64,000 nucleotides of DNA, taken from assembly GCA_050331735.1 (NCBI GenBank), contig JBHJGN010000055.1:10748-74747 (forward strand), in the 5' to 3' direction. Made by a program: the position numbers and the translations under genes. Each line of letters begins with the position of its first letter. The stretch's first letter is position 1. The stretch is from Cyanophyceae cyanobacterium. Lineage in GTDB: Bacteria > Cyanobacteriota > Cyanobacteriia > Cyanobacteriales > JBHJGN01. The notes under the pieces were generated by a model. It was not told the origin of the DNA. It ran no database searches and was given only the letters and a program-made list of their open reading frames with translations. Positions 11,107 through 22,566 of the stretch are shown one piece after another.

Positions 11107-12378
11107 CTATAGCCAATCGGCTAAAGAAGGAAGCGTTTTACCCTGACTGCTGCCCACAGCCAGCTTTTTGATGAGCAGAGCGCTATTATAGTCTCTGTCG
11201 CAACTCAGCTCGCATTGAGGGCATGAGTGCCAACGGTCTGAGAGAGTCTTGCTAACGCGGTTTAGACACTGGCTGCAATACTGAGAAGTGCCTTTGGGAT
11301 TGACTTTGATGACTCTTGTTCCATATTTTTGTGCTACCTGGAAGAGGATTTGCACAAAGTTAGCCACCCCATGAGCGCTCCAAGACTTGTTCAGACCCGC
11401 CTTAGCTGAGTTACCGTTGGGCACAAAGGCTCCATCCACTTTTTTTGGTTTATTCTTGCGCTTGAGGTTGCGGATTTTCAAGTCTTCAATCGCTAACACC
11501 TGACAGCTTCTAGCCAGTTGGTGAGCCTCGCTGTAGTGCCAATGCTTTCTCTGTCTAGCTATTTTCTGGTGAAGTCTGGCGCTCGCTTGCCGTATGAGTC
11601 TTTTCGCCTTCTTGCTACGGCTGCTGTCTTCTAACTTTCTTTGCAGTTTAGCTAGTTTAGATTCGGCACTTCTTAGATGTTTTTGGGGATGAGCTTGAGA
11701 GTTGTTAGAGTCTACATACAGCTTAGAGAGTCCGAGGTCAATGCCAACCGTATTTAACTCAGTTGGCACAGTATCAAACTCTGGTTCGGGAACCGACTTG
11801 TCCTCAACTGAAAAGCTAACGTAATAGCCATCAGCTTTTCGAGTAATTGAAGCAGTTTTCAGTTTGAACCCGCAGGGGATATCTCTAGACTTAACAAACT
11901 CCAAAATCCCAAGCTTCGGCAGCTTAATCGTCTTTCCGACTAGATTCTTGCCTCCGACACTCGGAAAGGTAAAAGTGCGATAGCGGCTTTTTCCTTTAAA
12001 CCGAGGTCGTCCACTCCGAGAGCCGTTACCATCGCCTTTGATAAATCTCTCAAAAGCTAGCTTGACGCGCTTGACGCAATCTTGTAGCACCTGAGAATAG
12101 ATTTCCTTGTACCAAGGTCGCTCTTGCTTAAGTTTGGATAAGCTAGCCGATTGAGAGTGCCAATCAGGGTTATCTCTCAGCTCCCCACATCCTAGTTCGC
12201 ACCAGCGCAAGCAATAGTCTCCTTGCGGTATCACTAATGCCGAGCGGTTGTATTCCCACCAGCGAAACCTGTCTGCCAACCAATAGTTGTACTGCGCTCT
12301 AAGCATATCTAGCCAGCAATTAACTTGTTGCCGCTGAGTTGCTGTGAGCTTGAGTTTGTACTGGTAGGTGAGTCTCAT
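11107..12378 (-). CDS. tnpB: RNA-guided endonuclease TnpB
   Basis: N-terminal HTH (YQYKLKLT), RuvC I GIDLG, RuvC II IEDL, zinc finger CSQC...CPQC, RuvC III DRDYNSA; all catalytic acidic residues present. Confidence 0.95.
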   Translation of the reverse strand: MRLTYQYKLKLTATQRQQVNCWLDMLRAQYNYWLADRFRWWEYNRSALVIPQGDYCLRWCELGCGELRDNPDWHSQSASLSKLKQERPWYKEIYSQVLQDCVKRVKLAFERFIKGDGNGSRSGRPRFKGKSRYRTFTFPSVGGKNLVGKTIKLPKLGILEFVKSRDIPCGFKLKTASITRKADGYYVSFSVEDKSVPEPEFDTVPTELNTVGIDLGLSKLYVDSNNSQAHPQKHLRSAESKLAKLQRKLEDSSRSKKAKRLIRQASARLHQKIARQRKHWHYSEAHQLARSCQVLAIEDLKIRNLKRKNKPKKVDGAFVPNGNSAKAGLNKSWSAHGVANFVQILFQVAQKYGTRVIKVNPKGTSQYCSQCLNRVSKTLSDRWHSCPQCELSCDRDYNSALLIKKLAVGSSQGKTLPSLADWL

Positions 12379-12418
12379 GGTAGAATCTTACCACTTACCG
12401 TACTTTTGTATCAACCCT

Positions 12419-12853
12419 TTGAACACTAGATATCGCAGTAGTCGCAGGGCAGTTTTTAATCTAACCGTACATCTAGTTCTGGTAACAAAGTATCGACGGA
12501 GTATTATGACTTCTCAGATGAAACAAGAGCTAGAGACAGTGTTTAGCTCAGTTCTATCTTCTTGGGACAGTGAGTTAGTAGAGTTCAACTGCGAAGCAGA
12601 TCATACCCACGCCATTATTTCCTATCCTCCTCACAAATTGCTTAGTTCTCTGATTGCCAATTTAAAAGCCACATCATCAAAGACAATGTGGCGCAAGTTT
12701 GAACTAGAGTTAAAAAATGTTTATCACAAACGAGTATTTTGGACAGGAGCTTACTTTGTCGCTAGTTGTGGTGGAGTGACAATAGATGTACTTAAGCAAT
12801 ATGTTCAAAGTCAAGCTAGTCCCACTGGCGATTCATCCCGTCACCGGAGGTGA
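12419..12853 (+). CDS. tnpA: IS200/IS605 Y1 (HUH) transposase TnpA
   Basis: HLVLVTKYRR, HuH motif DHTH, FWTGAYF, catalytic Tyr in KQYVQSQ. Likely TTG start at 12419 (ORF open from 12368). Confidence 0.93.
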   Translation: MNTRYRSSRRAVFNLTVHLVLVTKYRRSIMTSQMKQELETVFSSVLSSWDSELVEFNCEADHTHAIISYPPHKLLSSLIANLKATSSKTMWRKFELELKNVYHKRVFWTGAYFVASCGGVTIDVLKQYVQSQASPTGDSSRHRR

Positions 12854-12975: not shown

Positions 12976-15900
12976 TCAGTAATTTAAGTTATCTAATTCA
13001 TCTAATAGTAACGCTTCGGCCTCATACTCTGAAAGCTGCTGAATCTCATTCGTTGCTGAATCAATCGGGAGCAGTTTTGGGTGAGGAAACAAACTTTGCT
13101 CTAGATAATCAGCAAGAGCAGTGACGGTGGGATAATCAAAGGTAATAGGAGTAGATAGAGAACAATTTAAACTCTTTTGCAGTTGGTTTCGCAGCTCTAC
13201 AGAACTTAAGGAATCTAGTCCCAGTTCTGTAAACCCTTGCTGAAGCTCGATCTCGTCCGCCTGGAGGTCGAGGATGTTGGCGACTTGGGAGCAGAGATGA
13301 GCCACTAACAGCTCGCGGCGACGCTGGGGCATGGCGGCAGCAAGCTGCGATCGCAGATTAGGTCCGTCAGGCGATCGCTTGGCAACGAGGTCAGCAAAAA
13401 ACGGCATAGCTGGTTGCCGCTGGGACCAGTCGATAGGAATCACTCCGACTTGAGGCGCATAAGCTAACAAGGACTTTAGCCTATCTAAAGCCTGCTGAGG
13501 CTCAATTGTACCGATCCCTGGTGCAGGCTTCCAGTGGGTAGCAAGTCCGGTTTGGCTCCAGGCTCCCCAATTGATACTGAGTCCCGGCAATCCTAATCTG
13601 TGACGGTAGTGAGCTAAGGCATCGAGAAAAGCATTAGCAGCAGCATAATTCGCTTGCCCCGCAGCACCGAGAAGAGACGCAGCCGAAGAATAGAGCATGA
13701 AGAAATCCAAGTGATGGTGTTGGGTAGCCACATGCAAATTCCAGGCTCCTCGCACTTTAGGAGCCATTACCCGCTCAAACCGTTCCCAACTCTGCTGTTG
13801 CAGTACCCCGTCATCCAATACTCCAGCGGCGTGAATAAGGCCCCGAAGGGGAGGAAGCGAAGCCGTCATTTTCATTAAGTCAGCCACCTCATCAGGATTA
13901 GAAACATCAGCCTGCACCACCTGAATCTGGACCTGGTGCTTAAGCTGCTCAACGGTAACTTGAGCATCAGGGGATGGCTGGCTGCGTCCGACTAAAATGA
14001 GATGCTTGGCTCCTTGCTCAGCTAGCCACTGTGCCGTATGCAGTCCGAGTGCGCCTAACCCGCCAGTAATCAGATAGCTGCCGTCTGCTCGAATCGTTAG
14101 CTGAGGAGCGCGTTCTGGCAGAGTCACCACAATTTTGCCGATGTGCTGCGCCTGCTGCATGGTGCGGAAGGCGGTGACGGTTTCTTCCTGGGGAAAGACT
14201 TGCTGGGGAAGCGGCGTAAGCTTGCCATCCTCGATCTGCTGCATCACCTGGTTCAGGATTCCTTGAATCAGCGTCGGCTGCTGTTGCGTCACTGCTACCA
14301 AATCGACCAGGAAATAAGCCACATCCGGTCTGACCTGAGCGACTTGGCGATCGCTCCATACGCCATTTTTGCCAATTTCGACAAACCGACCTCCCGACCT
14401 TAAAACCGCTAAACTCTTGTCAATAAAGTCTCCGGCGAGAGAATTAAGCACAATATCAACTCCTTCCCCGTCGGTCAGCGCTAAAATTTCATCTGCAAAA
14501 TCCAGAGTACGGGAGTTCATCACGTATTTAACTCCCAGAGAGCGCAGCACATCCCACTTACCCGGTGAAGCAGTGGCAAATACCTCTGCTCCTGCCTGCT
14601 GAGCCATCTGAACGGCGGCTTGTCCCACTCCTCCGGCGGCTGCATGAATTAGCACTCGCTCTCCCGATCTCATTTTTGCTAGGGTATGCAGAGTGTAGAA
14701 TGCCGTCGAAAAGGCAACCGGAATCGTAGCGGCGGTGGCAAAGCTGAGCTTTGTCGGAACGACTAAAGCGGCCTTCACCGTGACCAATTCCCTAAAACAG
14801 CCAGGGGCGATCGCCACTACCGCCTCGCCAATTTCAAAACCAGCGACTCCTTGCCCGAGAGCAACAATTTCCCCGGTACACTCTAGCCCTAAAGCTCCCG
14901 GATCGCCGGGATACAGATCCAGCGCGTTCAGCACGTCGCGAAAATTCAGCCCCACTGCCCGCGCCCGAACGGTTACTTCCCCAAATCCTGGTTGAGAACG
15001 AGCTGAGGGTTGCCACTGAAGGTTATCTAACGTGCCGCGAGGGTTACTTGTTAGTTGCAGGGGTTGGAGTGACGACGCTTGCTCCCGGGGATGAACCAGT
15101 CTGGCAACGTAGCGGTTGCCGTTGCGGAAGGCGACTCGTTCTCCTTCTCCGGCACAGATTTCCGCCCATAGCTGATCTATACTTCCCGATTGGGGATCTA
15201 AATCGACCTGAACGCAGTTGAACTCAGGATGTTCTCGGGCGATCGCTCCTGCCATGCCCCACAGACAAGACTGAGCCAGTGCCACCCCTCTGCCTGCTAC
15301 TGCCTGAGCGCCTTGGGTGACTAGCCACAGGCGCGGATTTAGCCCCGTTTGAACCAACGCCTGCACGAGATGAAGAGTGCTGCCGCAGGAGTGTTTGATG
15401 TAGGTTTCTAAGCTTGACTTTTGAGAAGGCAAGAGGTTCTCCCTATCCCTCAAAGCAGGAGATTCAAGCTCGCTTGCGTCAGCGTCTAAACTCCATAGGT
15501 GAATCACTCCCTGAATTGGACCTACTGTAGTAAGCAGTCGGTAAAAATCCTCTCGGTGATCGGGATTGACGCGATCCGGTGTCTCCCTGTATTCGCCCGG
15601 ATCAACTAGTACACATGGCTGTTTAAACTTTGCCGCTAATTGCTGCGCTACGCCGCCTCGATCGGCGAAAATTAACCACTTACCCTTGGGAAGCTCTGAC
15701 GACCATTGTAAGGGCTGTCGTCGCCACTCGATCTGGTATAAATCCTGGCTGCTGGAGCCGCTCAGCCGTTCTCGACTGGCTCGCTTAGCACTGAGTCCAT
15801 CGAGTTCGGCGATCGCTCCCGCTTCATCGAATAAACGCACATCCGCCGTCACCACCGCTTCAGCTCCTTGAGAACGCAAGCGCACGTAGCTCCACAGATG

Positions 15901-18900
15901 TTGCCCTGGACGACGATAGTAGCGCAGGCGTTCTACCGCCACGGGCAGATAGAGGGGTGATTCCGGCAGGAGCGCTAAAATGACCTGACAGCAGGCATCT
16001 AATAGAGCCGGATGAAGCTGATAGGCGGTGGCGGATACATTATCGGGTCGCTCGATCCAGCCGAGCGCTTCTGACCCTCGACCCCACAGTTTCTTGATGC
16101 CGCGAAAGCTCAATCCGTAGTCGATGCCGCGTTCTTGACAGTGTCGGTAGTGTGCTGCCACGTCGATTTCCTCCAGGTGCGATCGCACTGCTAAATCAAT
16201 CGTCTGCTGAGGCGGCGGCTGCTTCACCAGATTGCCAGAACAGTGTAAGCGCCAGTCTTCATCACCTAAGCTGTAGATTTCAAACGTCTGTACTGTGCCT
16301 GAGTGCAACACCAACTGAACCGTTTGCGGACGATCTGATAGCATCAGTGGCTGCTGGATCGCCACGTTCTCCAGCATGAGGCTCGGGTTTGCTTCTCCTG
16401 CTGCTAAGGCCATTTCCAGGTAAGCCGATCCGGGCAAAATCACCTGTTGGTAAACACGGTGATCCTGAAGATAGTGCGGTTGATGACTACTCAACTCAGC
16501 CGTAAACAGCGTCTTTTTAAAAGCTGTGGGTGTCCGCTGTCCGAGCAAAGGATGAGTGGCTGGCAATGCCTTTAATTCAGTGCGAGGTGGCGGCTCGATC
16601 CAGTAGCGCTGTCGCTGAAACGGATAAGTAGGCAGCGACACCCGCGAACAGGAATAACCTCGATTGAAGCTCATCCAGTCAATCGTTGCCCCCTGCACGT
16701 AGAGTTGAGCGAGGGTTGGTAGAATAGTTTGCCAAGGCGATCGCTGCGGATGTAGACTCGGTAGCCAATGACAGTCGGGTTGCTTTATTGTTAAGCGTCC
16801 TAACTGAATGAGCGTGGGTTGGGGTCCGCATTCGAGAAAGATGGTAGTGCCTAATTGCTGAAGCGTTTTAATGCCGTCGGCAAATCGGACCGTAGAGCGA
16901 ATCTGACGACACCAATATTGGGGAGTCGCTATTTCAGCACCAATGCGATCGCCGGTTACAGTAGAAACAATCTCTAGCCGTGGCGTGGCGTACTCAATTT
17001 GGCTCGCTACCTGCTCAAACTGAGCCAGCATTGGCTCGATTAGCGGTGAGTGAAAGGCACAAGGTCCGGGCAACACTTTCTTTGGTCCGTTTAGACAAGC
17101 GATCGCCTTCTCCACTGCCTGCTGAGGACCAGAAACAACGACCCTTTTAGGAGCATTGATAGCGGCGATTGCTATCTCAGGATAAGGGGCGATCGCCTCT
17201 CTGACTTGAGCTGCGCTTGCCGCTACCGCTACCATTATTCCCCGCTGCGGTAACGCCTGCATCAAACGACCTCTCGCCGCCACCAGTTTGAGGGCTGCTT
17301 CTAAACTAAATACGCCCCCCACACAGGCAGCGACGTACTCCCCTAGGCTATGTCCGAGGACAGCACTGGGTGTAACGCCCCAACTGATCCACAGTTGAGC
17401 CAAAGCATACTCTAGGGCAAATAGGGCCGGTTGGGCATAGACGGTTTGATTTAGAAGCTCGGCAGATGAATAGATCTCAAGGAGAGGTTTGTCTAAATCA
17501 GGTTCTAAAAAAGTGGCGCAGCGCTCAAGGGTAGTGCGAAATTGGGATTGAGTTTCAGAGAGTTCCTGCCCCATGTTGAGGGACTGAGAACCTTGACCTG
17601 TAAACAGAAACGCGATTTGAGGGCGTTGACGGTTAGCAATGCCTCTCCCCGATTGGGTTGGCTGCTGAGCGAGAACCTGAAGCTGTTGGCGTAACTCGAG
17701 CTTAGATGTCGCTACTACCGCCAGCCGATGCTCAAAGGTTGCTCGTCCAGTATTGACAGTAAAGCAAATATCTGCTGTTGAGGCTTCGGTCTGCTGCAAA
17801 AATTGCCCGTACCGCGTCACTAACTCCCGCAGCGCTGGCTCACTCCGAGCCGAAAGCGCCAAAAGATGACCAGGACGCTCAATAGCCTGTTCTCTTCTTC
17901 TCACAGGAGCTTCTTCTAAAATGACGTGAGCATTCGTCCCGCCAATGCCTAGGGAATTAACGCCAGCACGACGAGGGTAATCGGTCTGCCAATCCTGTCG
18001 GGCTGTGTTGACGTAAAAGGGACTGTTGGCAAAATCGATCTGGGGATTGGGAGTATTGAAGTGCAGACTGGGAGGCAACTGTTTGTGATGCAGCGCGAGG
18101 ACAGTTTTAATGAACCCCGCAATTCCTGAAGCAATTTGCAGATGACCCACATTCGTTTTCACCGAACCGAGAGCACAGTAGCGCTTCTGCACAGCCTGAG
18201 TACCAGAGCGAAACGCCTGGGTCAGTGCTGCCACTTCAATCGGGTCTCCTAGGATCGTGCCAGTGCCGTGAGCCTCGACATAGCTGATGGTTTGGGCCTC
18301 CACTCCGGCGACAGCCAGGGCTTGGGCAACAACATTGGCCTGTCCCTCCCCGTTAGGAGCCAGATAGCCTACTTTCGTGCCGCCATCGTTGTTAATAGCT
18401 GAGCCTTTAATCACTGCATAGATGCGATCGCCATCAGCAACCGCCTCTTCCAAGCGTTTCAGCACCACCATTCCCGCCCCACTGCCGAAAATGGTTCCCT
18501 GAGCGTTAGCATCAAAGGCGCGACAGTGACCGTCCGCCGAAAAAATAGTTCCCTCCTGATACAGATAGCCGACTTGAGGAACGTGGACGGATACTCCCCC
18601 CGCTAAGGCCATGTCGCATTCTCCGGTGAGCAAGCTTTGGCTGGCCAGATGCACCGCTACTAGGGAAGTAGAGCAAGCCGTTTGGACATTCACGCTCGGA
18701 CCCGTGAGGTTCAGCTTGTAGGAAACTCGCGTGGTCAGATAGTCCTTATCGTTGGCCACCGTCGCCTGAAACCCCCCTGTGGAGCTGAGGGTAAAGACTT
18801 GTAGATCGCTGTCCGCGTCGAGGTAATGGCGGTTCGGGTAAACGTTATTTAAAAAATAGGTGTTGGCAGCCGCGCCAGCGTAGCAGGCGATCGCACCGGG

Positions 18901-21156
18901 ATAGGTCAAAGGACTGTAGCCCGCATCCTCTAAACTTTCCCAGGCACATTCAAGCAGGAGTCGCTGTTGCGGGTCAATCAGTTTAGCTTCTTTAGGGCTG
19001 TAGCCAAAAAACTCAGCGTCGAAGAACTCAATATCATCCAGGATCGGACTCGCTTTAACGTAGTGGGGGTGATTGAGCAGGGTTTGCTCAACGCTTTTGG
19101 CCAGTTCCGCATTGGTAAAAAAGGTGATTGATTCTATCCCGTTACATAAATTCTGCCAGAACTGGTCCACGGTGGCGGCTCCCGGAAACCGACAGGCCAT
19201 ACCAATAACGGCAATATCGCTACTGGTGCGAGGAAAACGCTGGCGCAGCGATCGCCTTTGGTCCAAATTCCTTGGAACCTGCTGACTGAGGTATTGAGCG
19301 AGAGCTTCGATGGTTGGATACTGAAATAACTCTACTACTGAAAGCTGCCGTTGCAGTCGTTCGTGAAGCTGGTAGAGAACCTGCATCAGCAGCAGGGAAT
19401 TGCCTCCTAGTTCAAAAAAATTGTCGGTCAATCCCGCTGCGTCAATCTTGAGCACGTTCTGCCAAATCTGGGCAATCTGACGCTCTAAGTCGTTCCGGGG
19501 CGGAAGGCGATCGCCCCCTCGCTCGAGTTCCCGAATCTGCTGTACGATTTCCTTAAACTCCCCGTGTTGAAAGCGCTGGCTAAGCTGCTGACGCTGAATT
19601 TTACCTAGGCTAGTTTTCGGAATCGCTTCTTTGGCAACCGGAATCACATAATTGGGAACCGCACCAATTTTACGGGCAACCGTTCTCCGAATCGTTTTAA
19701 TCAGGTTAATTAAAGAGTCATCCGAGCAGGTTGGATGGCAGAATAGGGCTAAACGCTCTGTGGCATCATCATCGCCTCGCACTGCACAGGCGGCAGTATA
19801 AGACACCGCTACCCCCTCCAAAGCTTCGACCACCGCTTCAATTTCGTGGCTGTAGTAGTTCGCGCTGTTGATCACGATGGTGTCTTTCTGCCGTCCGGTA
19901 ATGGTCAAGCGCCCCTGGCGCAGAAATCCCAGATCTCCGGTGTCGAACCAACCATCATCGGTAAACGGGTTGAGGTCGGGTCTACGGTAATAGCCAGAGG
20001 TGACAGTTGCTCCTCGGACCTGAAGCAGACCCACCGTTCCCGCTTCGACGAGATGACCATCGGCATCGACAATCCGCAGACACACTCCAGGAATCGGTGC
20101 ACCCACCTCCACAAACGGCTCATCCCCAGTTTGTAGTCGGGAGTGGGCAATACCGGAGCAGGTTTCAGACATGCCGTAGCCGGGACTAATTGCGCTACTC
20201 GCTAGCCCGTGGGGAGCGAGTAGCTCTGAAAACCGTCTTGCCGTTCGACCAACCACCGCTTCTGCCCCGTTCCCCATCCAGCGCACCGACGACAAGTCCC
20301 AGTGACGCTGTTGGCTGGTGGTGGCGTGGCTATTAACCAAGCCATAGGCAAAATTAGGAGCCCACGTTGCCGTGACACGATATTGCTCGATGAGGTCTAG
20401 CCATTTCAGCGGAGCCTGTAGAATGATTTCCGTTGGCACGTGGATTTGCTCACAGCCCAGATACGCGGGAGTAAAATGGAACATCACCAAACTAGCCACG
20501 TGCTCTAGAGGCATCCAGTTCAGGGTAATATCCTCCGCCGTTAATTGATTCACCGTCGCCATCCCGTAGGCACTCGCCAGCAGATTGCGAGCGCTCAGCA
20601 TCACACCTTTTGGGTTCCCGGTACTGCCGGAAGTCATCAGCATCAGCGCCACGTCGTCAAGCTGACCAACGTGATAGTTGCTGTCCGGAGTGGCTTGCCG
20701 TAACTCTTCGACGGCGACTGCTGCAAATGCGCCCAAGGAAGAAGCGTGAATAGCGTCAACTAATGCTTGTTCTGTGATGATGGGGGGGCGATCGCACAAC
20801 TGCCACGTTTGATACAGTAAACGGGCTTGAGCATCTGTGGAGCGAGAAGCCACAGGAAGCGGCACAGGCACAATGCCCCCTAATACACAGCCCCAGAATA
20901 CCGAGGTAAAGAAGTGAGCGTGAGTGGTTTGGATAATTACCCGGTCTTGGGGCTTTAGCCCTAGCGCCCTCAGTCCACCCAAGATATGCTCGGCTTGCTT
21001 GAGTAAAGCCGCATAAGGAAGGCTACCGTCAAGCTGATGGATTCCGGCTGAGGTTTGAGCCGCTCGCTGGAGAACTTTGCTCAGAGGAATAAAGGCTGCT
21101 TCAGGAACCGAGCCACCATCACTAACGGAGAGTTGGGTTCCTACACGTTCGATCAT
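12976..21156 (-). CDS. Hybrid loading-module / type I PKS: A(keto-acid-type)-T-KS-AT-DH-ER-KR-ACP, no TE
   Basis: A: TSGSTGNPKG, NWMPLEHV, YGMSET, TGDLG. T: FFELGGNSL. KS: QTACSTS, HGTGT, NVGHL. AT: GHSLGE, CAFHS. DH: HPLLG...DHRVYQQVILP. ER: LIHAAAGGVG. KR: TGGLGALG, LDD, YAAAN. ACP: LGLDSL. Confidence 0.95.
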   Translation of the reverse strand: MIERVGTQLSVSDGGSVPEAAFIPLSKVLQRAAQTSAGIHQLDGSLPYAALLKQAEHILGGLRALGLKPQDRVIIQTTHAHFFTSVFWGCVLGGIVPVPLPVASRSTDAQARLLYQTWQLCDRPPIITEQALVDAIHASSLGAFAAVAVEELRQATPDSNYHVGQLDDVALMLMTSGSTGNPKGVMLSARNLLASAYGMATVNQLTAEDITLNWMPLEHVASLVMFHFTPAYLGCEQIHVPTEIILQAPLKWLDLIEQYRVTATWAPNFAYGLVNSHATTSQQRHWDLSSVRWMGNGAEAVVGRTARRFSELLAPHGLASSAISPGYGMSETCSGIAHSRLQTGDEPFVEVGAPIPGVCLRIVDADGHLVEAGTVGLLQVRGATVTSGYYRRPDLNPFTDDGWFDTGDLGFLRQGRLTITGRQKDTIVINSANYYSHEIEAVVEALEGVAVSYTAACAVRGDDDATERLALFCHPTCSDDSLINLIKTIRRTVARKIGAVPNYVIPVAKEAIPKTSLGKIQRQQLSQRFQHGEFKEIVQQIRELERGGDRLPPRNDLERQIAQIWQNVLKIDAAGLTDNFFELGGNSLLLMQVLYQLHERLQRQLSVVELFQYPTIEALAQYLSQQVPRNLDQRRSLRQRFPRTSSDIAVIGMACRFPGAATVDQFWQNLCNGIESITFFTNAELAKSVEQTLLNHPHYVKASPILDDIEFFDAEFFGYSPKEAKLIDPQQRLLLECAWESLEDAGYSPLTYPGAIACYAGAAANTYFLNNVYPNRHYLDADSDLQVFTLSSTGGFQATVANDKDYLTTRVSYKLNLTGPSVNVQTACSTSLVAVHLASQSLLTGECDMALAGGVSVHVPQVGYLYQEGTIFSADGHCRAFDANAQGTIFGSGAGMVVLKRLEEAVADGDRIYAVIKGSAINNDGGTKVGYLAPNGEGQANVVAQALAVAGVEAQTISYVEAHGTGTILGDPIEVAALTQAFRSGTQAVQKRYCALGSVKTNVGHLQIASGIAGFIKTVLALHHKQLPPSLHFNTPNPQIDFANSPFYVNTARQDWQTDYPRRAGVNSLGIGGTNAHVILEEAPVRRREQAIERPGHLLALSARSEPALRELVTRYGQFLQQTEASTADICFTVNTGRATFEHRLAVVATSKLELRQQLQVLAQQPTQSGRGIANRQRPQIAFLFTGQGSQSLNMGQELSETQSQFRTTLERCATFLEPDLDKPLLEIYSSAELLNQTVYAQPALFALEYALAQLWISWGVTPSAVLGHSLGEYVAACVGGVFSLEAALKLVAARGRLMQALPQRGIMVAVAASAAQVREAIAPYPEIAIAAINAPKRVVVSGPQQAVEKAIACLNGPKKVLPGPCAFHSPLIEPMLAQFEQVASQIEYATPRLEIVSTVTGDRIGAEIATPQYWCRQIRSTVRFADGIKTLQQLGTTIFLECGPQPTLIQLGRLTIKQPDCHWLPSLHPQRSPWQTILPTLAQLYVQGATIDWMSFNRGYSCSRVSLPTYPFQRQRYWIEPPPRTELKALPATHPLLGQRTPTAFKKTLFTAELSSHQPHYLQDHRVYQQVILPGSAYLEMALAAGEANPSLMLENVAIQQPLMLSDRPQTVQLVLHSGTVQTFEIYSLGDEDWRLHCSGNLVKQPPPQQTIDLAVRSHLEEIDVAAHYRHCQERGIDYGLSFRGIKKLWGRGSEALGWIERPDNVSATAYQLHPALLDACCQVILALLPESPLYLPVAVERLRYYRRPGQHLWSYVRLRSQGAEAVVTADVRLFDEAGAIAELDGLSAKRASRERLSGSSSQDLYQIEWRRQPLQWSSELPKGKWLIFADRGGVAQQLAAKFKQPCVLVDPGEYRETPDRVNPDHREDFYRLLTTVGPIQGVIHLWSLDADASELESPALRDRENLLPSQKSSLETYIKHSCGSTLHLVQALVQTGLNPRLWLVTQGAQAVAGRGVALAQSCLWGMAGAIAREHPEFNCVQVDLDPQSGSIDQLWAEICAGEGERVAFRNGNRYVARLVHPREQASSLQPLQLTSNPRGTLDNLQWQPSARSQPGFGEVTVRARAVGLNFRDVLNALDLYPGDPGALGLECTGEIVALGQGVAGFEIGEAVVAIAPGCFRELVTVKAALVVPTKLSFATAATIPVAFSTAFYTLHTLAKMRSGERVLIHAAAGGVGQAAVQMAQQAGAEVFATASPGKWDVLRSLGVKYVMNSRTLDFADEILALTDGEGVDIVLNSLAGDFIDKSLAVLRSGGRFVEIGKNGVWSDRQVAQVRPDVAYFLVDLVAVTQQQPTLIQGILNQVMQQIEDGKLTPLPQQVFPQEETVTAFRTMQQAQHIGKIVVTLPERAPQLTIRADGSYLITGGLGALGLHTAQWLAEQGAKHLILVGRSQPSPDAQVTVEQLKHQVQIQVVQADVSNPDEVADLMKMTASLPPLRGLIHAAGVLDDGVLQQQSWERFERVMAPKVRGAWNLHVATQHHHLDFFMLYSSAASLLGAAGQANYAAANAFLDALAHYRHRLGLPGLSINWGAWSQTGLATHWKPAPGIGTIEPQQALDRLKSLLAYAPQVGVIPIDWSQRQPAMPFFADLVAKRSPDGPNLRSQLAAAMPQRRRELLVAHLCSQVANILDLQADEIELQQGFTELGLDSLSSVELRNQLQKSLNCSLSTPITFDYPTVTALADYLEQSLFPHPKLLPIDSATNEIQQLSEYEAEALLLDELDNLNY

Positions 21157-21343
21157 TAGTTACGTTTGAATCTTGCTCTAGCTTTGCGAAGGCTGCGTAC
21201 TTTTATATCATCGTGAGTGGTAAAACTCAACGAATTGGCTGCGCTAGGATTTAATGATAAGCTCTTGGCTTTTAGCGATTAACTCTTAGCTTCAAGAAAG
21301 CTTTTAGCTAGATTGAGGGAGATCGCTAAACAAGTGGCTCATC

Positions 21344-21377
21344 GCTAACAGCTAACGGCTAAGAGCTAGGAGCTAAT
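21344..21377. repeat. Short tandem heptamer repeat (GCTAANA-type)
   Basis: GCTAACA GCTAACG GCTAAGA GCTAGGA GCTAAT in the divergent promoter region. Confidence 0.6.
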
Positions 21378-21420
21378 TCGTTCCTTCTTCTGCGGCGAGT
21401 GATGCGTGGTCAAACAGGAC

Positions 21421-22566
21421 ATGATGAAGACGAGTCGGCTGACAATTTTTGATGAAACTCTGCGAGATGGCGCTCAGCAAGTGGGGCTGTTTTTCGAGGA
21501 TGACATGACGCGATCGCTGGCTCACCTGATTGCCCAAACGGGCGTACATCAGATCGCGTTTATGCCTGAAATTGGGGAAAGCGAGGAGCGCTTGGTACAG
21601 TCTCTGATTGCGTCAGGGTTGAGCAATCTCACTGCCTCTACCAGGATGGGGCGGCAGTTTATCGACCACTCCAAAGCCTGCGGGGTGACTCGCATCATCC
21701 TCTTTCACGCCGTCTCCGACCAGCTTCTGCTGCTGAGAGCGGAACCTTCTCAGAAAGCCGAACCTGACCTGACTCGCCTTCGTCAGCAGACCATTGACAA
21801 AATTCTGGCCAATTTGCACTACGCAGCCCAGGCTGGCTTGAAAATTGCTTTTGCCGCCGAAGATGCTAGTCGAGCAGATTTTGGCTTTTTAGTGGAGTGC
21901 ATTGAGGCGTTTAGTCCGTATCTGGAACACTTTTTACTCTGCGATACCGTTGGAGTGCTAACCCCAGAAAAAAGCTATATTTGGGTTCACGATCTGCTGC
22001 AAACCACCCAAGCATCCTTAGCCGTTCATTTTCACAACGATATGGGGTTAGCCTTGGAAAATACGATTCAGGCGGTCTTAGCTGGAGCCACAGGCGTTTC
22101 GGGGACGTTTGGCGGTATTGGAGAACGAGCGGGAAATGTGGCCCTGGAGCAGGTTTTAAACGGTTTACGGCTGCGCTTTGGCTGGAAGGTGGCAGGCATT
22201 GATTACGCCGCCCTGGCGGAAGTCACCAACTGTCTAGAGCAATGGGGAATCCGAGCCAATGCTCCCTACTCTGCGCAGGCGCAGCGCTACGAAGCCGGAA
22301 TTCACGTCAATTCCCTGCTGCGCGATCGCACCAGCTACTCTATTTTTCCCTATGGAAAACCGGAAATTTGGTTTGGCAAGTGCAGTGGAGCGAGCAATTT
22401 TCAGTACCTCTTTGAACAGCTTCAGCAACCGCTTAAAAAAGAGCAGTACGAGCAACTGCGATCGCAGATCAAAACCCTAGCCATCCAGGAAAAACGCTCG
22501 TTTTCAACCCAGGAAATTTTGGCAATGTTGCAGCAGGGAGTTCTTAAGATTGAGGGAGAGCAATAA
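21421..22566 (+). CDS. DRE-TIM metallolyase, LeuA/CimA/homocitrate-synthase-like, without a regulatory domain
   Basis: IFDETLRDGAQQ, AEDASRAD, LCDTVG, HFHNDMGLA, GGIGERAGN; about 380 aa, too short for the leucine-binding C-terminal domain. Confidence 0.88.
   Translation: MMKTSRLTIFDETLRDGAQQVGLFFEDDMTRSLAHLIAQTGVHQIAFMPEIGESEERLVQSLIASGLSNLTASTRMGRQFIDHSKACGVTRIILFHAVSDQLLLLRAEPSQKAEPDLTRLRQQTIDKILANLHYAAQAGLKIAFAAEDASRADFGFLVECIEAFSPYLEHFLLCDTVGVLTPEKSYIWVHDLLQTTQASLAVHFHNDMGLALENTIQAVLAGATGVSGTFGGIGERAGNVALEQVLNGLRLRFGWKVAGIDYAALAEVTNCLEQWGIRANAPYSAQAQRYEAGIHVNSLLRDRTSYSIFPYGKPEIWFGKCSGASNFQYLFEQLQQPLKKEQYEQLRSQIKTLAIQEKRSFSTQEILAMLQQGVLKIEGEQ

Follow-up and report, generated by a model that had tools for sequence, protein, structure and literature searches.

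A divergent HphA-family and polyketide synthase gene pair as part of a predicted, dispersed amino-ketone pathway in cyanobacteria

In a 64,000-nucleotide stretch of a Cyanophyceae cyanobacterium genome (GCA_050331735.1, contig JBHJGN010000055.1, positions 10,748 to 74,747; the stretch is called the window and its genome G000 below), a gene for a polyketide synthase (PKS) of 2726 amino acids (aa), designated PKS1, lies divergently to a gene for a short LeuA-like enzyme, designated HphA'. On balance, we favour the view that this pair belongs to a dispersed pathway of at least five genes, building an oxo-substituted alpha-amino ketone from a custom 2-oxo acid. In this pathway three enzymes, namely HphA' and, from contig C61, an HphB-like dehydrogenase and a fused isomerase of HphCD type, would extend a hydrophobic 2-oxo acid, probably an aromatic one, by a single carbon, using the chemistry of the homophenylalanine/homotyrosine pathway. 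The loading adenylation (A) domain of PKS1 would then adenylate the 2-oxo acid and transfer it to the first acyl carrier protein domain (ACP1), where the oxo group would be retained because no ketoreductase (KR) acts at the loading stage. PKS1 would add one malonyl unit, fully reduce the new beta-position and hand the chain via its conserved C-terminal tail to a second synthase, PKS2 (contig C66), which would add a second fully reduced C2 unit. The alpha-oxoamine synthase (AOS) domain of PKS2, a pyridoxal phosphate (PLP)-dependent enzyme resembling serine palmitoyltransferase (SPT), would couple the chain to a small amino acid in a decarboxylative condensation and thereby release it, and the product would be an oxo-substituted alpha-amino ketone, i.e. 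a sphingoid-like lipid. What the genomes show directly is which genes are present, how their domains are ordered, to which families they belong, that their linkage is conserved and that they co-occur from genome to genome; from this we infer the enzyme substrates, the passage of the chain from PKS1 to PKS2 and the nature of the product.

The large open reading frame (ORF) was intact in the window translation, and the short ORF (386 aa) starts with GTG, while the database copy of its protein starts with an ATG at 21424 and has 380 aa. The divergent spacer accordingly measures 249 bp (to GTG) or 267 bp (to ATG), and the positions of the pair given in the initial annotation of this DNA proved exact, its spacer of about 260 bp being in keeping with these lengths; the two loading-domain motifs that it quoted, LNWMPLEHVASLVMFH and PGYGMSET, are both present in the 2726-aa translation. 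Pfam gave the domain order AMP-binding, PP-binding, ketosynthase (KS), acyltransferase (AT), dehydratase (DH), enoylreductase (ER), KR and PP-binding for PKS1. The features of the pair are as follows:

12976..21156, minus strand: PKS1, A-ACP-KS-AT-DH-ER-KR-ACP, 2726 aa, no release domain (ORF, Pfam, motifs)

19522..21156, minus strand: loading A domain, aa 1-545; the Asp235 position is occupied by V220, and core A5 contains G328-M329 (aligned with 6ulw/6ulx and 4r0m, residue roles as given in part of PMC11253843, tree, motif table)

19288..19479, minus strand: carrier domain 1, aa 560-623, GGNS (Pfam PP-binding, motif)

18058..19221, minus strand: KS, aa 646-1033, TACS/HGTGT/NVGH (Pfam, motifs)

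16696..17610, minus strand: AT, aa 1183-1487, GHSLG/CAFH (Pfam, motifs)

15763..16554, minus strand: DH, aa 1535-1798, DACCQ (Pfam PKS_DH_N and PS-DH, motif)

14125..14982, minus strand: ER, aa 2059-2344, GGVG (Pfam ADH_N and ADH_zinc_N, motif)

13555..14082, minus strand: KR, aa 2359-2534, LDD (Pfam KR, motif)

13093..13299, minus strand: carrier domain 2, aa 2620-2688, LDSL (Pfam, motif)

12979..13092, minus strand: docking-like C-terminal tail ending in ...LSEYEAEALLLDELDNLNY (alignment of orthologues)

21157..21423, unstranded: divergent intergenic region common to PKS1 and the LeuA-like gene (ORF coordinates)

21406..22566, plus strand: HphA', predicted HphA-family 2-oxo-acid:acetyl-CoA condensing enzyme, 386 aa from GTG or 380 aa from the ATG at 21424 (Pfam, tree, residues)

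Catalytic motifs were intact in every domain of PKS1 (SGSTGNPK, GGNS, TACS/HGTGT/NVGH, GHSLG/CAFH, DACCQ, GGVG, LDD and LDSL), and the AT carries the xAFH motif of malonyl-specific enzymes. Pfam detected no KR between the A domain and ACP1, as the initial annotation had stated, and no thioesterase or reductase release domain in PKS1. The C-terminal tail contains a motif, LS(D/E)xEAEALLLxEL, that is kept in all nine aligned full-length PKS1 orthologues; by analogy with the docking domains of cyanobacterial PKSs, this tail is presumably a docking element.

On sequence comparison, the loading domain is closest to loaders known by their architecture to take 2-oxo acids. Among solved chains, the A-ACP didomain matched the loading didomain of McyG (microcystin; 4r0m) with E 3.9e-146 and the entries 6ulw/6ulx with E 3e-138 and 7e-129, with fatty acyl-AMP ligases (FAALs) following at about E 1e-42. 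The latter two entries represent StsA, the sole crystallised 2-oxo-acid A domain in the account given by the available part of the review PMC11253843; in it the relevant StsA contacts are I306, which takes the Asp235 position, and the backbone of G414-M415, and McyG is listed with V227 at the position of Asp235. In our alignment V220 of PKS1 corresponds to StsA I306 and G328-M329 to G414-M415, such that both features of 2-oxo-acid A domains are present (a hydrophobic residue at Asp235 and Gly-Met for Gly-Pro in core A5). The best 14 relatives from a sample of 401 genomes across the phylum comprised 11 loaders of adenylation-ketoreductase-thiolation (A-KR-T) architecture, one McyG-like protein (A-ACP-KS-AT-methyltransferase), one A-PKS of genome G207 and one A-ACP-only protein. 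These were placed with PKS1 orthologues and FAAL-type domains in a 47-row tree (IQ-TREE quick search, LG+G4, with support from the Shimodaira-Hasegawa-like approximate likelihood-ratio test (SH-aLRT) only), in which the 30 PKS1 A domains formed one clade (SH-aLRT 97) and the 11 A-KR-T loaders another (89), 0.14 and 0.056 below their shared node, respectively. The McyG-like, G207 and A-ACP-only rows were long single branches (0.93-1.27), and three FAAL-type domains were set apart by branches of 1.12. In the motif comparison, PKS1 has LEHVASL where the FAALs of the same genome have (P/L)(Y/F)HDMGL, and with the branch lengths and the E values this upholds the earlier statement that the loading domain is not a FAAL. 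Pocket motifs were near-invariant across the 30 PKS1 A domains (LEHVASLVMFH, WMGNGAEA and SPGYGM(S/T)ET), whereas those of the A-KR-T loaders vary.

The A-KR-T loaders of the StsA/cereulide type (6ulw/6ulx) share with PKS1 the hydrophobic residue at the Asp235 position and the Gly-Met pair, and such loaders form a neighbouring clade in the tree, but PKS1 differs in the pocket (LEHVAS versus LDHVGG) and has a KS next instead of a condensation domain. The embedded loading KR, present in all 11 nearest A-KR-T relatives, is missing between the A domain and the carrier of PKS1, so that no 2-hydroxy acid would be made. Supply of a loader by neighbouring leucine-type genes has been proposed for Floridanema clusters, in which LeuA/LeuCD/LeuB-type genes beside A-KR-T loaders (floridanemamide) are suggested, from gene adjacency only, to supply 2-oxoisocaproate (2026 preprint PMC13252402, in the part available). 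G000 itself also encodes a classical A-KR-T-C-A peptide synthetase (C, condensation domain; contig C68:3800-13847, L153), the loading A domain of which is 50% identical to that of the window.

The closeness of McyG to the didomain raises another explanation, namely that the PKS1 loader takes an aromatic acid other than a 2-oxo acid (an arylpropanoid or a 2-hydroxy acid formed from what the Hph-type enzymes make), or a 2-oxo acid that loses C1, leaving no extra oxo group in the chain. McyG has the same fusion of A-ACP to a first PKS module, which also occurs in the McyG-like locus L151, and its A-ACP is the best solved match to the PKS1 didomain; moreover, both proteins carry Val at the Asp235 position and a conserved Trp (W265 in PKS1, aligned with W272 of McyG), and loading without a KR is unusual for 2-oxo-acid loaders, given its presence in 11 of 11 relatives. 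Yet the McyG-like domain is only 39-41% identical to the window A domain and lies on its long separate branch, compared with 47-51% for the nearer A-KR-T loaders, and no enzyme that could reduce or shorten an acid is conserved in the loci. The McyG-like module further differs from PKS1 in having a methyltransferase after the AT and no ER in the first 2035 residues scanned. We therefore consider McyG-like loading unlikely. The 4-oxo-acyl chain and the C1-truncated starter proposed in the initial annotation are still hypothetical chemistry.

The LeuA-like enzyme was assigned to the HphA (benzylmalate synthase) family. It consists of an HMGL-like barrel (PF00682) and an HCS_D2 domain (PF22617) without the C-terminal LeuA regulatory domain, it scored under the cutoffs of all NifV, LeuA and CimA equivalog models, and the solved structure that it matches best is the homocitrate synthase 6ktq, which is also named as the structure closest to HphA of Nostoc punctiforme in the available text of PMC12961565. 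A search of 5.8 billion proteins returned close homologues with 59-69% identity, all of them cyanobacterial where an organism was named, and many homologues (62-68% identity) bear the JGI label 'benzylmalate synthase', which is HphA. HphA' is 55-62% identical to family members of Nostoc/Nostocales and Microcystis; it is not the housekeeping enzyme, because G000 has three other LeuA-family paralogues with 28-32% identity to it. In a tree of 97 distinct members from named and sampled genomes the family fell into two halves of 61 and 36 rows (SH-aLRT 100 each). The larger half contains Nostoc, Microcystis, Floridaenema and others, none of which adjoins a PKS1-type synthase, and the smaller half contains the window gene, with 28 of its 36 rows (the window included) lying divergently to a PKS1 orthologue. 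The tree places HphA' in a sister clade outside the canonical one.

The pocket of HphA is described in the same part of PMC12961565 as A73, D157, A159, M186 and S242, and the numbering of a Nostocaceae member matches these published positions. A159 and S242 were invariant in both halves of the tree; position 73 is Ser in all 36 sequences of the PKS-linked half and in 14 of the 61 canonical members, and position 186 is Leu or Ile (Leu in HphA'). None of the signature residues listed in that text for homocitrate synthase (His, Arg, Thr, Ser, His) and isopropylmalate synthase (Leu, Glu, Ser, Asn, Glu) was found in HphA'. A role in biotin synthesis (pimeloyl/KAPA) was rejected on two grounds: the genes go with the HphA family, and residues typical of homocitrate synthase are missing. 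As far as PMC12961565 was available, the window system resembles HphA/HphB/HphCD of N. punctiforme in family, in the lack of a regulatory domain, in A159/S242 and in forming a trio with a fused small-plus-large-subunit isomerase. It differs in that the window enzyme lies in the sister clade with Asp157 replaced and Ser73 fixed, is linked to a PKS and not to a peptide synthetase, and presumably delivers a product that is used as a 2-oxo acid and not as an amino acid, the canonical Hph genes of Nostocales supplying homo-amino acids to peptide synthetases (PMC12961565, in part).

The remaining genes of the proposed pathway were found elsewhere in G000. An HphB-like gene (71% identical to that of a relative) and a fused HphCD-like gene (68%) are adjacent on contig C61 and were assigned by NCBIfam to the LeuB family (under the equivalog cutoff) and the homoaconitase/isopropylmalate isomerase family, respectively. 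PKS2 (2511 aa) lies among unrelated genes on contig C66 and has the order KS-AT-DH-ER-KR-ACP-AOS, the C-terminal AOS (Aminotran_1_2) carrying GTLSKS, the motif of the PLP lysine, and DEAHS; its nearest structures are the SPTs 3a2b and 8guh, followed by KBL/BioF enzymes. In relatives the same parts stand together. PKS2 is directly downstream of HphA' in four loci (L002, L012, L042 and L122), a PKS2-like KS follows PKS1 in L001 and L003 (59.8-65.4% identity) and, more distantly related, in L014, L015 and L042 (48.6-51.7%), and a fused LeuD-LeuC-type aconitase (HphCD-like) adjoins the pair in L014, L015 and L116. In locus L006 the HphA-like gene stands together with genes for a fused aconitase, a dehydrogenase of isopropylmalate type, a free-standing AMP-binding enzyme and a PKS with a C-terminal aminotransferase-fold domain. 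PKS1 orthologues lie divergently to HphA' in 28 distinct loci of other cyanobacteria as counted from the gene neighbourhoods (28 rows with the window included in the tree), and because the same divergent layout recurs in other cyanobacterial loci a chance pairing is ruled out. The initial annotation was consequently right in its main line, the linkage of a LeuA-like gene to the PKS being conserved, and incomplete in that it described a two-gene system: at least five genes are involved, and chain release would come from the PKS2 AOS encoded elsewhere.

A fully reducing type I PKS chain released by an SPT-like AOS as an amino-ketone or sphingoid base has a precedent in PfSgaAB of Pseudomonas fluorescens MYb115, which was shown experimentally to make sphinganines (PMC12134224, in the part available). 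In that account SgaA is a single iterative PKS with a stand-alone AOS, whereas here two non-iterative modules are predicted, with the AOS fused to the second, and are accompanied by a loader of A-domain type and a trio of genes dedicated to 2-oxo-acid homologation.

Within the sample of 401 genomes, an HphA-family gene was present in 14 (E <= 1e-92), with no further genome giving a match at E <= 1e-60, and the fused HphCD-like gene (65-74% identity) was found in exactly the same 14 genomes; ten further aconitase matches with 41-43% identity were unfused genes in small genomes of another family. A PKS-fused AOS with at least 66% identity occurred only in G000, G163 and G022, which are the sampled genomes with an HphA' of the PKS-linked half. 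Two genomes (G019 and G207) contained a 59%-identical PKS-fused AOS without Hph genes, and 17 others had only shorter AOS forms (open frames of 441-1157 aa). In five genomes (L008-L011 and L018) HphA' had no PKS within 10 kb, yet each of the five holds a PKS1 orthologue elsewhere (A-ACP 60-64% identical; frames of 579-3049 aa, three of at least 2868 aa) together with a PKS-fused AOS (68-73%) and a fused aconitase-type gene (72-75%). The co-occurrence of the two genes across genomes, which the initial annotation had put forward as a check, thus extends to all parts of the pathway even where HphA' is unlinked. Co-occurrence is given as counts and not as statistics because related genomes are not independent. 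Together, linkage and co-occurrence suggest that PKS1 feeds PKS2, and the perfect co-occurrence of the isomerase agrees with the earlier description of the LeuA-like enzyme as one that condenses keto acids, here of the HphA homologation family. G207 encodes an A-ACP-KS-AT-DH-ER synthase and a PKS ending in an AOS on the same contig (L150; C213:38416-53742) with no Hph-type genes, and its A domain is divergent (43% identity, another pocket, a long separate branch). This genome appears to be a natural variant with a different starter, giving some support to the idea that the trio feeds the A domain.

The same data bear on the possibility that the LeuA-like enzyme acts late, i.e. that it joins a 2-oxo acid to the polyketide thioester at its alpha-carbon and then hydrolyses the thioester, so that PKS1 would be relieved of a product of alkyl-malate type. 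In LeuA-type enzymes Claisen condensation and thioester hydrolysis are coupled, and PKS1 has no release domain of its own. However, the isomerase co-occurs perfectly and the dehydrogenase adjoins the isomerase in this genome and in several loci, and therefore a full homologation cycle is indicated; in addition, HphA' belongs to a family that uses acetyl-CoA, the PKS1 tail is docking-like and conserved, and PKS2 supplies a release domain. Late action of this enzyme is considered very improbable.

Several observations weigh against a route in which the Hph-type trio makes a 2-oxo acid that PKS1 loads with its oxo group intact. The hydrophobic residue and the Gly-Met pair also occur in McyG, the crystals of which contained Phe-AMP, and in G000 the Gly-Met pair is found in two FAAL-type domains as well (YGMAE). 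As McyG has both features and the genome's own FAALs have Gly-Met, the two features are no proof of a 2-oxo-acid substrate; of the earlier proposal that they mark keto-acid-activating domains, their presence as in StsA stands and the diagnostic value of Gly-Met falls. The order of the PKS1, A-KR-T, McyG-like and G207 clades is a polytomy in the quick, SH-aLRT-only tree. The characterised N. punctiforme HphA is not in the family tree, so the canonical clade was set by Nostoc and Microcystis members and by the matching residue numbering. Position 157 is Asp in 52 of the 61 canonical members and never in the PKS-linked half, where it is Cys (26), Tyr (4), Ser (4), Trp (1) or Ala (1, the window HphA'), and because Asp157 is replaced the substrate of HphA' may differ from phenylpyruvate. 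No co-variation of residue 157 with the A-domain pocket was seen, the residue varying and the pocket being near-invariant. The KS of PKS2 is preceded by only about 20 residues, fewer than would be usual in a classical docking partner. Finally, the phylum-wide A-ACP search scored only three candidates per genome, among which orthologues and paralogues both had about 50% identity, and it was not used for the co-occurrence of PKS1.

The variation at residue 157 against a constant A pocket also speaks for an arrangement in which the Hph-like trio makes a homologated amino acid (after transamination) for the AOS of PKS2, while the A domain draws a different acid, not an amino acid, from general metabolism. 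This would parallel the canonical Nostocales genes, which provide homo-amino acids for peptide synthetases (PMC12961565, in part), and would suit the four loci in which HphA' is directly upstream of PKS2 (L002, L012, L042 and L122). On the other hand, HphA' adjoins PKS1 (28 loci) far more often than PKS2 (4 loci), the AOS is nearest to the Ser/Gly/Ala users SPT, KBL and BioF, and no dedicated aminotransferase is conserved in the loci. Furthermore, G207 and G019 keep the 59%-identical PKS-AOS without Hph genes, and in G207 it is the A domain that differs. Provision of the amino acid by the trio is accordingly judged improbable, and somewhat more so than McyG-like loading; the use of its 2-oxo acid as the starter of PKS1 remains the reading that we prefer.

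The genes flanking the pair were unrelated to it by Pfam. Directly 3' of the synthase are tnpA and tnpB of an IS200/IS605 insertion sequence (IS) element (window 11107-12853), followed by FeoA and a secretin, and beyond the LeuA-like gene are DUF3747, Tab2 and RimM. The promoter and terminator scan gave one sigma-70-like site in the divergent spacer (21184-21211, plus strand; consensus match only). The elements next to the 3' end of PKS1 are:

12368-12853, plus strand: IS200/IS605 tnpA, abutting the synthase 3' end

11107-12378, minus strand: IS200/IS605 tnpB/Cas12f-like gene of the same element

12892-12875, minus strand: terminator-like hairpin between the IS element and the synthase (consensus match only)

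This element may have separated PKS1 from its partner gene. A TnpB gene was also found near the HphB-like and HphCD-like genes of C61 in the same genome, and IS/TnpB neighbours at both places would fit the scattering of a once-compact cluster. The HIP1 octamer (GCGATCGC) occurs 68 times in the window (1.2 expected) and 16 times in the synthase gene, i.e. 1.96 per kb compared with 1.06 per kb window-wide. The HIP1 richness mentioned in the initial annotation was thus confirmed, and its density fits a long stay of the synthase gene in a cyanobacterial genome. A search for a regulatory motif shared upstream of the three dispersed loci (9-10-mers against shuffles) yielded none that was accepted: the R1/R4 10-mer match was rejected as lying inside a repeat-coding small ORF, and the R2/R3 matches as G/A-rich low-complexity runs. 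Among the sequencing runs listed for the stretch there was no RNA run; one DNA run contains it and may have been the basis of the assembly.

Several further genes were seen at these loci. On C61 of G000 a small ORF with tandem repeats of about 11 residues lies between the HphB-like and HphCD-like genes (L060:7392-7757, minus strand), and the same contig encodes a 2713-aa FAAL-ACP-KS-AT-KR-ACP-sulfotransferase-hydrolase with olefin synthase (Ols/CurM type) architecture, followed by DUF6208 (L061:2903-11044). Contig C4 (L030:2788-8868) carries two FAAL-like genes followed by a gene for a 549-aa ACP-AOS fusion that is 61% identical to the PKS2 AOS; this locus resembles a second, simpler amino-ketone lipid system, and similar proteins of about 540-560 aa were found in G002-G005. 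In three Elainellaceae loci (L001:11262-15769, L003:11267-15555 and L016:697-4668) the HphA-like gene is followed by genes for a Rieske/PaO-type oxygenase, an FAD (DAO) oxidoreductase and a class III aminotransferase, which may be tailoring genes. In two related genomes the HphA-like gene is closely followed on its downstream side by a DevBCA-like set of HlyD/FtsX/ABC exporter genes (L005:3137-7619 and L007:12562-17043), which may export the product. The Spirulina version of the cluster contains a homologue of the PagL-like lipid A deacylase (L006:7188-7955).

No description of this gene combination was found in the literature searched (supplements excluded), in agreement with the earlier remark that it was not recognised as a characterised pathway. 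Every part is of a known kind, i.e. Hph-type homologation, a 2-oxo-acid-type A domain, fully reducing PKS modules and AOS release, and it is the combination that is new to the literature searched. The system is widespread among cyanobacteria and uncharacterised; cultured carriers include Pleurocapsa PCC 7327, Stanieria PCC 7437, Xenococcus PCC 7305 and Hydrococcus rivularis NIES-593, the names of PKS1 homologues being otherwise generic. For genome mining it calls for caution, since the pathway is split over three contigs in this genome and cluster-based tools would therefore show an incomplete two-gene 'cluster' without a release step. If a 2-oxo acid is indeed loaded and kept, this would be a new mode of PKS priming, as we know of no PKS for which the logic of a KR-less starter with an intact oxo group has been demonstrated. 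More tentatively, we propose that many non-heterocystous cyanobacteria share this pathway in clustered or scattered form, with a dedicated branch of the HphA family making the 2-oxo acid, a KR-less A domain priming the PKS with the oxo group intact and an SPT-like domain releasing an aryl- or oxo-functionalised, sphingoid-like amino ketone. If true, this would define a new class of cyanobacterial amino-ketone/sphingoid-like lipids, and such an amino ketone may act in membranes as a lipid or in signalling in the manner of CAI-1.

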